21,804 nucleotides of DNA. Source: Minisyncoccota bacterium. Lineage in GTDB: Bacteria; Patescibacteriota; Minisyncoccia; Phycocordibacterales; JBAYGS01. The DNA lies in assembly GCA_041666545.1 (NCBI GenBank), contig JBAYGS010000001.1, forward strand, positions 1 to 21,804, written 5' to 3'. The position numbers were made by a program, and so were the translations under genes. How positions within the stretch are numbered: position 1 is the stretch's first letter; every line of letters starts with the position of its first letter. The notes under the pieces were generated by a model. That model ran no database searches. It saw nothing but the letters and a program-made list of their open reading frames with translations, and had not been told where the DNA came from. This document shows, in pieces, positions 14,065 to 17,779 of the stretch.

Positions 14065-14100
14065 ACCCGTTCCACTTTAGTTAACTAAAGTGGAACGGGT
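14065..14100. repeat. Perfect 36-bp palindrome ACCCGTTCCACTTTAGTTAACTAAAGTGGAACGGGT, member of a 3-copy motif family
   Basis: It is self-complementary over its whole length. The core TTCCACTTTA...TAAAGTGGAACGGG recurs at 16210-16239 and 17749-17779. Confidence 0.85.
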
Positions 14101-14129
14101 AGGGGTGGTATGTGGTGAAGTCAGATTTT

Positions 14130-14164
14130 GATTAAATAAAAACAACCGTCCAAAGGGGCGGTTG
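14130..14164 (-). terminator. Intrinsic terminator for the minus-strand gene 14203..14706 (CAACCGCCCC-tttgg-ACGGTTG followed by TTTTTATTT on the minus strand)
   Basis: The plus-strand hairpin at 14143-14164 is preceded by an A-rich tract, which is a U-tract on the minus strand. Confidence 0.6.
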
Positions 14165-14202
14165 TGGTGAGGCGAATGCCGAGTGTAAAGGTTGTGTCAG
14201 GC

Positions 14203-14706
14203 TTATTCCGGGAGGCCGACGAAGTAGGGCTTGCGTGCCAGGTCGACTTCGAAGGCGCCGATGACGAAGGCGTGGAGTGTCGAGGCGAACAGGCCGGAAA
14301 TTGCCAGATCGTGGTGCCAGGCGAGACCGCTGGTGCCCACGATAATTCCCTCATAACAGACGCTTCCGCCAAATTTAAAGTCCTCCTTCAGAAGCAGGTG
14401 GGGTTGGTGTCGCTGGACGAGATGACTGGGTAGGCCAGTACGCCACGATAAGTGCGCCTTTTTGAGCGCGAACTCATCGTAGGGATTTTTCCATTTCGTC
14501 TTGTCTGGTTCCCCGAACGATTCTTGCCAAAGCAGTGGGTCATCCCGGTTGATGAATTGGTGGTCGTACGGTATGGTCGGGTCGAGGACCGCCACGCAGG
14601 CGACAGACCGAGAGGGGTCGAGTGCAATAATCGCCTCAATACTCGGTTTCAATATATCCGCCACTTGTTTGACAAGTGCTTTTGTGAGAAGAGCTGATGA
14701 ACTCAT
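14203..14706 (-). CDS. GlcG/HbpS-like (DUF336) protein, tentative
   Basis: The C-terminal segment FGGSVCYEGIIVGTSGLAWHHDLAISG resembles the conserved fGGG.PI..dG.viGAIGVSG...e.D motif of the GlcG/HbpS family. Length is 167 aa. Confidence 0.4.
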   Translation of the reverse strand: MSSSALLTKALVKQVADILKPSIEAIIALDPSRSVACVAVLDPTIPYDHQFINRDDPLLWQESFGEPDKTKWKNPYDEFALKKAHLSWRTGLPSHLVQRHQPHLLLKEDFKFGGSVCYEGIIVGTSGLAWHHDLAISGLFASTLHAFVIGAFEVDLARKPYFVGLPE

Positions 14707-14873
14707 TTTTTTCCTTCGGTTTCGGTGGTTCTTGTCTATTCGGTTTGAGTTGCTGAACTAGTATGTAGACTAACACTGTCATGCGACGATGTCAATGTCG
14801 GGTGGTCGTCATACCCCAAAATATCAAGGTCGGACCTTAATGGTGGTTTTATAATTCAGACCCTGGTCTAAAT

Positions 14874-15293
14874 TTGGCTGTTTCTGATATAATTTTGAAT
14901 ATGAATAAAGTCACACATTTTGAATTTCCTTGGGATGACAAGGAGCGAGCGAAGTCTTTTTATCAGAAAGTTTTTGGCTGGAAGCCTTTTGAGTGGGAGC
15001 AGTTTAGTTATACCAGTTGGCAAACTGGGCCGATTGACGAAAAGATGCAACCAAAAGAAACAGGTTTTATAAATGGCGGCTCTAGTAAGCGTGATGCCAG
15101 CATGCCGTACCCGATGTTTTATATCGATGTTCCTGATATGGACTTGGCTTTAGGTAATATTATTAAAAACGGTGGTTCAGTAGTACGCGGTAAAACTCCG
15201 TTAGGAGAAAACGGCGCGATGGGTTTCCTGGCTTGGTTTAAGGATTCCGAAGGAAACATTCTCGGGTTGTCTCAATACAAAAGACCTGAATAA
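14874..15293 (+). CDS. VOC-family (glyoxalase/bleomycin-resistance fold) protein
   Basis: The N-terminal VTHFEFPWDDKERAKSFYQKVFGW and C-terminal GFLAWFKDSEGNILGL segments are typical paired beta-alpha-beta-beta-beta modules of VOC proteins. The start may be the internal ATG at 14901. Confidence 0.55.
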   Translation: MAVSDIILNMNKVTHFEFPWDDKERAKSFYQKVFGWKPFEWEQFSYTSWQTGPIDEKMQPKETGFINGGSSKRDASMPYPMFYIDVPDMDLALGNIIKNGGSVVRGKTPLGENGAMGFLAWFKDSEGNILGLSQYKRPE

Positions 15294-15315
15294 TTAATCT
15301 AATCTATACATTAAT

Positions 15316-15765
15316 ATGCTTACTACAATTTCACTTTCAGTTGCCGGGGCGGTGATTGCCGCAGTCGTTGGTACCATTTGGTATTCCAACTCGACTCCGA
15401 TGGGCAGGATTCATATGCAATCTCTCGGGTTTGATAAACTGTCGGAGGAAGAAAAAAAGAATAAAATGCAGACGGGGAAGGCGATGATGCCGAAGATGTA
15501 CACGGCTCAACTGTTGCTATCATTTCTAACAGCCTTTGCGGTGGTCTTTATTGTGTCTATGAGCGTCAAGAACGGCGTGTCGCTCGGTCTGGCTATTGGA
15601 TTTGTGATGCTAAACTGGCTCTGCTTTATTGTCCCGACAATTGGTTCCGGAGTGCTCTGGAGTAATTGTGATCCAAAACTTGCTTGGAAAAAATTCTTCT
15701 CTGATATTTTCTCAAATCTGGTCACGCTTCTGCTGATCGCATTTCTGACCAGCTTTTTTGTCTAA
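15316..15765 (+). CDS. Small integral membrane protein (four predicted TM helices), DUF1761-like
   Basis: Hydrophobic segments run along its length. The N-terminal pattern AGAVIAAVVGTIWYSN resembles DUF1761 proteins. Confidence 0.45.
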   Translation: MLTTISLSVAGAVIAAVVGTIWYSNSTPMGRIHMQSLGFDKLSEEEKKNKMQTGKAMMPKMYTAQLLLSFLTAFAVVFIVSMSVKNGVSLGLAIGFVMLNWLCFIVPTIGSGVLWSNCDPKLAWKKFFSDIFSNLVTLLLIAFLTSFFV

Positions 15766-15789
15766 GACAAAATACTGGGGGTGAGTTTG

Positions 15790-16317: not shown

Positions 16318-16390
16318 TACAAGTGGAAGTATATAACAAAACAACCCTGCGACAGCTTCGGGAGCTGTTCAGGTAAGAAAGGAAGGTCAT

Positions 16391-16885
16391 ATGTCAGTGA
16401 TTCATGCACGCGTTGCTCTGATTGAGGCGGAAGAAGATATTCGAAAGCTTCTGGCCAAAGCTCTTCTACGGCATGGCTACCAAGTTTCAACTTTCGCCTC
16501 GGCGGAGGAGTTTCTTGGGAGTGATGGTTTGGCCCGTCTGCTCGAGTTCGATGTGGTGGTTCTCGACTACCAGATGGTAGAGATGAACGGCCAAGAACTC
16601 TGTCAGAGGATCAAAGCGGTCCGACCCGAGTTGCCGGTCATTATCGAAAGTGGCATGCCTGGACGAGAATTTATTGGTGAGTGCCTCAAGGCTGGTGCCA
16701 ATCGGGTCCTAACCAAGCCCTTCTCGGTCGAAGAGTTGCTGGCTACAATTCATGCTGTCCTGCCCACGGTCGATATAAAGAAGATTACTGCGCCATCCGT
16801 TTCGGATGTCATTGAGGAAGCAGTGGCTAGTGCCGTACTCGATGTGGTGGAGGAGGCTATCGGTTTGGCCGATGATGATGATTAA
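16391..16885 (+). CDS. Stand-alone CheY-like response-regulator receiver domain protein with a C-terminal acidic tail (..LADDDD)
   Basis: The REC pattern is present: an acidic N-terminal cluster (IEAEED), phospho-acceptor Asp in VVVLDYQM, T/S in IIESG, and K in LTKPF. There is no output domain. A strong RBS is present. Confidence 0.7.
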   Translation: MSVIHARVALIEAEEDIRKLLAKALLRHGYQVSTFASAEEFLGSDGLARLLEFDVVVLDYQMVEMNGQELCQRIKAVRPELPVIIESGMPGREFIGECLKAGANRVLTKPFSVEELLATIHAVLPTVDIKKITAPSVSDVIEEAVASAVLDVVEEAIGLADDDD

Positions 16886-16915
16886 TCAATTTATCCCTAG
16901 AAAAAGTTTGCAGAA

Positions 16916-16946
16916 CCCGTGGCCCAAGTGGCTCACGGGTTTTTAT
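16916..16946 (+). terminator. Intrinsic terminator for the receiver gene (CCCGTGGCCCAAGTGGCTCACGGG followed by TTTTTAT)
   Basis: A GC-rich hairpin is followed by a T-tract about 30 nt after the stop. Confidence 0.65.
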
Positions 16947-16951
16947 ATATT

Positions 16952-16979
16952 TAAAAAGCCGCCCACGGGGTGGGCGGCT
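16952..16979 (-). terminator. Intrinsic terminator for the minus-strand gene 16997..17590 (AGCCGCCCAC-cccg-TGGGCGGCT followed by TTTTT on the minus strand)
   Basis: The hairpin is preceded by AAAAA on the plus strand. It sits back-to-back with the plus-strand terminator, giving a convergent pair. Confidence 0.65.
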
Positions 16980-16996
16980 AACGAGCTGAAGGGGTC

Positions 16997-17590
16997 TTAC
17001 TCAACACCCCAGGTCTTTTTGGAAAGCCAGTGTCCGACCTGGCATCGGACCGGTTGGCCCGACAGGGTAAACATCTTGAACTGGTAATCTCCTGAATCGA
17101 AAATGTCTCCGAGGCGGATGCGAACCAGAGTTTGGCCTACATAGAGTGGGCTGACCTTCACAAAGGTGGAGTTGTCAAACACTTCCGGCTTTTTGCCGCG
17201 CCGCGCCTCGCGGAGCCTTTGAGCCCGAAGATTGGCGTCGCGGTTCTTCCACGGTGTCCTTCCGTATACGAGAATTGCCGCGGGGAATCCACCCGCACAA
17301 ACTCCGACTTTGAAAACCTCGCAGCTGAAGATCTGACTCCGCGGGATTCGGGCAACTTCGCGCTTGCCCTGACGGATTATGAGGTGCTTCGGGGCGCGCT
17401 CTTCATCAATTACCGCCCGGAAATCGCCATTGCCATATTGCAGCAATTTTTGGCTCCAGCGGGTGCAACCCAACTCTTCGCACCGATTGTCAGGGACGCC
17501 GTTGTAGAGGGTCTGTATAACTCCGCACGGCGAAATTCGGCCGTGTTGCCTAACATAACAGCCGGTTAGGTCGGCGAGCATTGCTTTCAT
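16997..17590 (-). CDS. Hypothetical Cys-containing protein (197 aa)
   Basis: A long minus-strand ORF with its own terminator. No recognisable family; Cys residues occur at TGCYVRQHGRISPCG and CEELGC. Confidence 0.45.
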   Translation of the reverse strand: MKAMLADLTGCYVRQHGRISPCGVIQTLYNGVPDNRCEELGCTRWSQKLLQYGNGDFRAVIDEERAPKHLIIRQGKREVARIPRSQIFSCEVFKVGVCAGGFPAAILVYGRTPWKNRDANLRAQRLREARRGKKPEVFDNSTFVKVSPLYVGQTLVRIRLGDIFDSGDYQFKMFTLSGQPVRCQVGHWLSKKTWGVE

Positions 17591-17748
17591 TTTTTGTCCT
17601 TAATTTGGGTTTTCTGCGGTTTCGTTTGGTATACCAGGGAACCGAGTCTACTTCTAGTATATACATATATATAGAAAATGTCAAGGGCGGGTTTTGGGTT
17701 AGACAAATAAGGTGCGTGACGGTTGAATCTGTGGGTCAGTATTCAATT

Positions 17749-17779
17749 GTTCCACTTTAGTTGAGTAAAGTGGAACGGG
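17749..17779. repeat. Palindromic motif copy 3: GTTCCACTTTAG-ttga-GTAAAGTGGAACGGG
   Basis: It shares arms with the other two copies. It lies in the divergent intergenic region between 16997..17590 (minus) and 17836..18666 (plus). Confidence 0.8.

Follow-up and report, generated by a model that had tools for sequence, protein, structure and literature searches.

HisR, the YerC protein of B. subtilis, is a histidine repressor of the TrpR family, and operators for it have been predicted in Firmicutes, Actinobacteria, and Synergistetes, where they follow a common palindromic consensus of 20 bp, cacTTTAnnnnnnTAAAgtg (Ashniev et al. 2022, PMC9413887). Characterized HisR relatives repress his genes, histidine transporters, and their own gene; about half of the hisR genes have a site upstream, pointing to autoregulation, and the R. 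gnavus protein binds such a site in vitro only in the presence of histidine (PMC9413887). The phyla of the Candidate Phyla Radiation (CPR, Patescibacteria) lay outside the coverage of that study (PMC9413887). Here we consider three palindromes in a 21,804-nucleotide stretch (the window) at the end of contig JBAYGS010000001.1 of a Minisyncoccota bacterium (assembly GCA_041666545.1, forward strand, positions 1 to 21,804), which, judging from their sequence, are likely to be operators of a YerC/HisR-type dimeric repressor. CPR bacteria have few regulators and are mostly without histidine synthesis, and to our knowledge very little is known about transcriptional regulation in them. The type of operator is known; the lineage and the gene context are new.

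A pattern search for TTCCACTTTA-N6-TAAAGTGGAA returned three exact matches in the window, at 14070-14095, 16210-16235, and 17750-17775, against none in 100 dinucleotide-preserving shuffles of the sequence, and there was no fourth match in the window with up to three mismatches allowed. With their flanks, the three copies, none of which is assigned to a strand, are as follows.

14064..14101, no strand: copy 1, a 38-bp perfect palindrome with the core CACTTTA-GTTAAC-TAAAGTG at 14073-14092
16210..16239, no strand: copy 2, TTCCACTTTA-CCTGAC-TAAAGTGGAA followed by CGGG, core at 16213-16232
17750..17779, no strand: copy 3, TTCCACTTTA-GTTGAG-TAAAGTGGAA followed by CGGG, core at 17753-17772

A three-copy palindromic motif had been proposed in an earlier note on this DNA, and the three exact matches, with none in the shuffles, bear it out. 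The arms of 10 to 12 bp described there hold for 10 nt that are identical in six of six half-sites, the G at the 11th position being present in five of the six only. Some details have to be revised: the spacer does not vary between 4 and 6 nt but measures 6 nt throughout (GTTAAC, CCTGAC, and GTTGAG in copies 1, 2, and 3), with GTTGAG replacing the ttga previously given for copy 3, and the perfect palindrome of copy 1 measures 38 bp (14064-14101) instead of 36. Between copies the spacers differ at two to five of the six positions, and the outer flanks are unrelated. The copies share one orientation; on the plus strand, CGGG directly follows the right arm in all of them (14096-14099, 16236-16239, and 17776-17779), and its left-side complement CCCG is found in copy 1 only. 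In copy 3, the flanking CAATTG and a CAATTG-like AATTG could pair with 4 nt (GGGA) looped out.

All three copies lie within 3.7 kb, and no further copy occurs in the remaining 28 kb of the 31.8 kb of contig sequence searched (the window, which lies at the end of a 341-kb metagenome contig, plus 10 kb downstream). Because such sites are rare in CPR sequence that was not ascertained by the motif, three sites in 3.7 kb constitute a specific cluster. Loci with orthologues of the window's CoaD gene in two related Paceibacterota (L124 and L125) contained no sites, and the CoaD-orthologue loci of relatives (57-62% identity) showed neither synteny with the window nor the motif.

The core CACTTTA-N6-TAAAGTG corresponds over 20 bp to cacTTTAnnnnnnTAAAgtg, with each of the three copies agreeing at all 14 specified positions, and the window motif, written as CCACTTTA-N6-TAAAGTGG, is an exact instance of the HisR consensus. 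Like the described HisR operators, the window sites are 20-bp cacTTTA-N6-TAAAgtg palindromes with an unconserved 6-bp spacer. HisR operators lie upstream of yerC/hisR and his genes, and CPR loci show the same yerC-hisD-hisG linkage. The window sites differ in that they flank no his gene, histidine transporter, or hisR, that the conserved half-site is longer (GTTCCACTTTA), that one copy sits between convergent genes, and that they belong to a Paceibacterota/CPR lineage, in which many sites are embedded in longer perfect palindromes. The E. coli TrpR operator (TGTACTAGTTAACTAGTACA type) offers a more distant comparison, being a palindrome of about 20 bp read by a dimeric repressor of the same family. 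The centre of copy 1, TAGTTAACTA, coincides with the centre of the trp operator. The half-site, however, is GTACT there and CACTTTA here, and the effector here would not be tryptophan. The consensus quoted for TrpR operators is TGTAcTnGTnnACnAgTACA, and the Gram-positive HisR motif is distinct from it (PMC9413887).

Sites of this kind recur in other genomes. When 185,579 species, each represented by a single genome, were scanned for the exact arms around spacers of 4 to 8 nt, there were 14 matches, five of which had a 6-nt spacer; four of these five were in metagenome-assembled genomes of Patescibacteria (Minisyncoccia, Saccharibacteria, Taylorbacteria, and Nomurabacteria) and the fifth in an actinobacterial one. 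A metagenome scan for TCCACTTTA-N6-TAAAGTGGA yielded 84 matches spread over 82 loci, with groundwater assemblies as a frequent source. When the inner core CTTTA-N6-TAAAG with complementary outer arms was required, 98 unique sites were found in 529 kb of metagenome loci, compared with 0.8 in shuffled sequence.

In these CPR genomes the motif is linked to yerC, and the link holds in both directions. Small proteins with the signature GLSS(R/T)TIAR..KW...GGY are encoded downstream of sites, a linkage that was noticed before the literature match to the HisR consensus was made. As judged by tblastn, a YerC/YecD-type gene stands directly beside a site in seven loci fetched by the motif (L007, L051, L064, L075, L082, L088, and L111), usually with one or two sites 3 to 120 nt upstream of the yerC start and often with more just past the stop. 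Five of these seven proteins were scanned against families with curated cut-offs: the three complete ones exceeded those of TIGR02531, the YerC/YecD family of TrpR-related proteins, and of PF01371 (Trp_repressor), and the two fragmentary ones matched TIGR02531 just under its cut-off. Among solved structures, TrpR-like proteins of Firmicutes (3g1c, 3frw, and 3kor) come closest to them. A profile of the seven has more than 6,400 homologues, those named coming from Parcubacteria, Minisyncoccota, Kaiserbacteria, and Ryanbacteria, where the family is abundant. The family that recurs most often in genes starting next to a site is Trp_repressor, followed by NUDIX, hisD (Histidinol_dh), and 6PGD; the same family enrichment revealed no coherent regulon beyond the his genes. 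Either hisD or hisG adjoins yerC in L007, L111, and L130, with hisD present in two motif-fetched loci.

The reverse direction was examined in three loci that had been fetched by protein similarity and not by the motif. In the Minisyncoccota locus L126, one site precedes yerC by 31 nt and another precedes the adjacent divergent AstE-like gene by 6 nt; the Parcubacteria locus L130 has one at -65 of yerC, two just past yerC, and one more 69 nt beyond hisG; in L128 the only site, at -45 of yerC, is a degenerate CGCTTTActtgacTAAATTA. A further locus, L134, is the long contig of the L088 yerC, a gene already found through the motif; its single site in 20 kb falls within the yerC promoter TTGACT-17-TAAAGT, 5 nt ahead of the ATG.

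Two observations on these neighborhoods may be added. LDcluster4 (SLOG/LOG-like) genes repeatedly adjoin yerC in CPR (L130, 10718-11242; L134, 7769-8404 and 10306-10869), and an amino acid permease gene (Aa_trans) lies directly upstream of yerC in L134; both are possible members of a conserved CPR YerC neighborhood. Separately, in seven low-GC metagenome contigs (L041, L063, L065, L080, L092, L098, and L100) the palindrome TCCACTTTA-tcatgg-TAAAGTGGA lies between rplA and rplJ, about 25 nt past rplA and 70 to 164 nt before rplJ, inside a promoter-like TTGACT-17-TAAAGT, and is possibly a YerC-type site at a ribosomal protein operon.

We consider it likely, then, that the three window palindromes serve as operators of a YerC/HisR-type dimeric repressor. 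The dimeric transcription factor operator suggested in the earlier note gains support from the consensus match and from the yerC linkage in CPR, and since the arms are identical and the spacers drift, recognition by a protein fits better than recent copying. A YerC/HisR-type homodimer, presumably encoded in this genome and probably loaded with an amino acid as corepressor, would bind each palindrome, with the helix-turn-helix of each monomer reading one half-site (G-T-T-C-CACTTTA; GTTCCACTTTA). The 6-bp spacer would not be read by the repressor and would be free to drift. At the CPR yerC genes, where the site lies over the promoter or transcript start, regulation would presumably be negative and achieved by occlusion. 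In this member of Paceibacterota, the same type of site may mark a 3.7-kb cluster of genes other than his genes, made up of a receiver-only regulator, two orphan or unknown genes, and the 3' end of an M23 peptidase gene. If this is correct, a testable pair of YerC/HisR-type regulator and operator can be assigned to a Paceibacterota genome, and the range of the HisR motif extends from Firmicutes, Actinobacteria, and Synergistetes to CPR. It suggests that the CPR YerC regulon includes more than the his genes, taking in orphan genes and a receiver-only regulator, and it gives the reconstruction of regulons in uncultured, auxotrophic symbionts a place to start. The advance is incremental: a known system is extended, and no new mechanism is introduced.

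The genes and promoter-like sites around the three copies are the following.

13373-14032, plus strand: M23 peptidase (family scan)
14203-14706, minus strand: unknown protein of 167 aa
14874-15293, plus strand: VOC/glyoxalase protein
15316-15765, plus strand: DUF1761 protein
16290..16317, plus strand: putative promoter-like TTGACA-16-TATAAA of the receiver gene, read from the sequence
16391-16885, plus strand: receiver-only response regulator without an output domain, between copies 2 and 3
16997-17590, minus strand: orphan protein of 197 aa
17656..17684, minus strand: promoter-like TTGACA-17-TATACT (11 of 12 matches) for the 197-aa orphan, from the promoter scan
17799..17827, plus strand: promoter-like TAGACA-17-TATGCT for the gene at 17836-18666, from the promoter scan
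17836-18666, plus strand: protein of 276 aa without a family match, the nearest gene downstream of copy 3

The contexts given in the earlier note (copy 1 between convergent genes, copy 2 before the receiver promoter, copy 3 in a divergent region) agree with the sequence. Copy 1 has convergent genes on either side and lies 33 nt after the M23 peptidase stop codon; a separate minus-strand terminator-like hairpin can be read from the sequence beside it, at about 14133-14172. Copy 2 precedes the start of the receiver gene by 156 nt. Its end is 54 nt upstream of the -35-like hexamer of TTGACA-16-TATAAA, and its centre is about 100 nt upstream of the inferred start; this promoter-like site, which is missing from the promoter scan because its second hexamer ends in A, is a possible target of copy 2. 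A divergent promoter-like site lies on either side of copy 3, from which the ATG at 17836 is 61 nt downstream and the start of the minus-strand gene 16997-17590, in its own direction, 160 nt downstream. Copy 3 ends 23 nt upstream of the -35 hexamer of TAGACA-17-TATGCT and starts 66 nt upstream of that of the minus-strand TTGACA-17-TATACT. Set against an upstream region running from -350 to +50 of a gene start, copy 2 stands at 156 nt and copy 3 at 61 and 160 nt, copy 1 falls outside, and none of the three overlaps a predicted core promoter. The TATGCT hexamer ends 8 nt before the ATG at 17836, which is not preceded by a Shine-Dalgarno sequence, and the transcript of this gene therefore looks leaderless. 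A -10 element only a few nucleotides before the ATG is also seen at the yerC genes of L082, L088, and L134.

Scanning the genes around the window copies turned up no DNA-binding domain. The earlier note had suggested the orphan receiver's partner as a candidate regulator; the receiver-only protein itself, being without a DNA-binding domain, is not a plausible one, and we regard it as a candidate regulated gene instead, as is the gene of the 276-aa protein. The 197-aa orphan had no homologue but itself among 5.8 billion proteins.

Several observations weigh against operators of this type in the window. Neither tblastn nor an hmmsearch of six-frame open reading frames (ORFs) detected a YerC-like ORF in the 31.8 kb of contig sequence, and none of the flanking genes scanned is a histidine biosynthesis or transport gene or hisR. 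Copy 1, between its convergent genes, has no gene start nearby. The window sites are situated upstream of predicted core promoters and not over them, and no copy overlaps one, unlike the autoregulatory sites of yerC. The one-sided CGGG of all three copies is not accounted for by a symmetric dimer. Finally, left-right complementarity continues outside the motif. Measured palindromic extension past the motif averages 3.6 bp, compared with about 0.33 expected, and amounts to at least 5 bp in 17 of 65 sites, with arms of up to 25 bp (L012). Counted position by position over 106 unique sites, the half-site reads G-N-T-C-C-A-CTTTA. The complementarity at positions 5 and 6 outward is 0.75 versus 0.32-0.35 expected, an excess that lineage-specific variants of the half-site can explain, and at outward positions 7-9 and 11 it is 0.42-0.51 versus 0.28 without any sequence conservation there. 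Palindromic extension beyond the motif is thus real in a subset of sites, and a dimeric repressor alone is insufficient to explain it.

This extension is also an argument for the elements acting mainly as transcribed hairpins or cruciforms, be it as terminators without a U-tract, insulators, or stem-loops that process or stabilize RNA, in which case the resemblance to HisR operators would be secondary, unless the elements combined both roles. Copy 1, folded as RNA, reaches -33.7 kcal/mol (z = -7.8) in its position just past a stop codon between convergent genes; many CPR sites lie 14 to 45 nt past a stop codon; and the site after hisG in L130, also in a convergent region, has 17-bp arms. Copies 2 and 3, on the other hand, form weak hairpins (-12.7 and -16.5 kcal/mol), that of copy 2 on the plus strand folding no better than 10 of 200 shuffles. 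None of the three copies appears in the terminator scan, their arms are rich in A+T next to the loop, and no T-run follows any copy, as the earlier note had held when it excluded terminators; Rfam gave only chance sub-threshold matches of the palindrome to microRNAs and small nucleolar RNAs. Structure alone would not need an identical 7-nt half-site across phyla, the loop of orthologous sites can face either way relative to transcription (compare L011 with L105), and sites in convergent regions do not clearly differ from the rest in the length of the extension. Arm variants that are symmetric (CTACA/TGTAG, CTCCT/AGGAG, and others) might be taken as proof of a hairpin through compensatory change, and were rejected as such, the scan itself having required complementarity. 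In 36 secondary sites chosen on the 10-nt inner core only, the half-sites (GCTNCW-CTTTA) vary almost independently, and 5 of 16 CPR-type secondary sites are fully symmetric, compared with about 3 expected. The compensatory-change argument was dropped because unselected half-sites are nearly independent and lineage-specific variants can mimic covariation. On balance we find a mainly structural role unlikely. Somewhat less doubtful, though still speculative, is a combination in which a YerC/HisR-type repressor has been re-used in CPR for a wider, non-histidine regulon, its operators lying inside long palindromes that double as hairpins. A single element would then be both a DNA operator and an RNA or DNA hairpin (a terminator or insulator between tightly packed genes), and the window would be one target island.

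Conceivably, the sites are read by another DNA-binding protein with a similar palindrome, such as another TrpR-like, an XRE, or a TrmB-type factor. The missing yerC in 31.8 kb and target genes that are not his genes would fit this, as would the width of the half-site (11 nt plus the one-sided CGGG, against the published 7 nt) and the L012 site, which lies between TrmB-like and XRE-like genes. Yet all 14 consensus positions of HisR are matched in each copy, YerC/YecD is the only gene family that recurrently adjoins the motif, and the genes flanking the window copies offer no DNA-binding domain; we judge this slightly less probable than the hairpins. Least probable of all, and in our view improbable, is a small palindromic repeat spread within the genome, like repetitive extragenic palindromic (REP) sequences, miniature inverted-repeat transposable elements (MITE), or palindrome-associated transposable elements (PATE). 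Three copies in 3.7 kb with 100% identical arms, a shared one-sided CGGG, and the same orientation might suggest such a repeat, and extended palindromes are common in CPR relatives. The differing spacers and unrelated outer flanks are the reverse of what recent copying leaves, however, the other 28 kb contain no further copies, no transposase or REP-associated tyrosine transposase (RAYT) gene was recognized among the window genes scanned, and a scan of viral contigs gave mostly unrelated TAAAGTGG iterons. REP sequences, the bacterial interspersed mosaic elements (BIME) that they form, and Correia-type repeats resemble the window sites as multicopy intergenic palindromes able to form hairpins, but they are lineage specific, run to tens or hundreds of copies, and are conserved over their whole length. 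In the window sites only the protein-contact arms are conserved and the spacers drift, and the core is common to Firmicutes, Actinobacteria, Synergistetes, and CPR. The REP- or MITE-like alternative of the earlier note is accordingly a poor fit to a motif that is conserved across phyla while its spacers and flanks differ, and operators of a YerC/HisR-type repressor remain our preferred explanation.

A number of other candidates were considered and set aside. The half-site GTTCCAC resembles half of a parS site, and the 11+6+11 layout resembles that of dif; parS, dif, and other recombinase core sites were dropped given the YerC linkage, the HisR consensus, and the several copies per locus. Integron attC-like sites or cassette boundaries do not agree with the mixed gene orientations or with conservation of the inner core rather than the ends. 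Some sites have GGAG or AGGAG in the 3' arm with a start codon 4 to 12 nt after it, as a hairpin in the 5' untranslated region sequestering the Shine-Dalgarno sequence would; the pattern is not general, does not occur in the window, and is better explained by operators that overlap the yerC promoter or start. Likewise, reading the right-arm TAAAGT as a -10 hexamer with a -35 hexamer at 17 nt works for the yerC genes of L082, L088, and L134 and for the group upstream of rplJ, but the arrangement shows no overall enrichment and is absent from the window. A phage origin was rejected after the viral-contig scan, which returned 20 mostly unrelated matches. In three of these viral contigs, L021 (57-78 and 12844-12865), L025 (36-57), and L033 (41-62), tandem GTAAAGTG(G) heptamer-like iterons stand beside a CCACTTTA-N6-TAAAGTGG palindrome. 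These contigs measure about 11 to 13 kb, and the iterons lie no more than 80 nt from their ends, with inverted terminal copies in L021. Their appearance suggests terminal repeats or origin iterons belonging to a small phage or plasmid-like element, unrelated to the window motif.

Some further features of the window deserve mention. A G+C-rich region of about 340 nt on the minus strand (15825-16170) has no credible ORF and folds with a minimum free energy of -134.6 kcal/mol (z = -3.6), better than 100 of 100 shuffles. It ends in a strong minus-strand terminator, GGGCGGCTCGCTTGCGAGCCGCCC plus a T-rich tail (15850-15827), and a weak promoter-like TTGCAC-16-TATTCT lies on the same strand at 16202 to 16175, 7 nt from copy 2. 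The region, which has no Rfam match and no homologue in 0.93 Mb of collected loci, may be an unannotated structured RNA. Upstream of the cluster, 8425-13236 (plus strand) encodes a protein of 1603 aa, unusually large for a CPR genome, that consists mostly of repeated helical units with the signature S-P-E-(V/I/M)-Q-x-A-(A/V)-K and ends in a GNAT acetyltransferase domain (weak Pfam matches). Downstream, the minus-strand gene at 18728-19864 encodes CoaD (pantetheine-phosphate adenylyltransferase) fused to a C-terminal part that fragmentary JGI annotation assigns to the HD-superfamily phosphohydrolases. This fusion is kept at 40-64% identity in more than 100 Patescibacteria proteins, and in relatives it follows TrmB and CoaE genes. 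At 20016-21182 there are two divergent genes for house-cleaning purine NTPases, DUF84 NTPase_I-T (minus strand) and Ham1/RdgB (plus strand). The 75-nt gap between them holds CATTTTAaataggTATAATG at 20605-20624, with three mismatches to the motif core, which is more likely a -10 element than a site.

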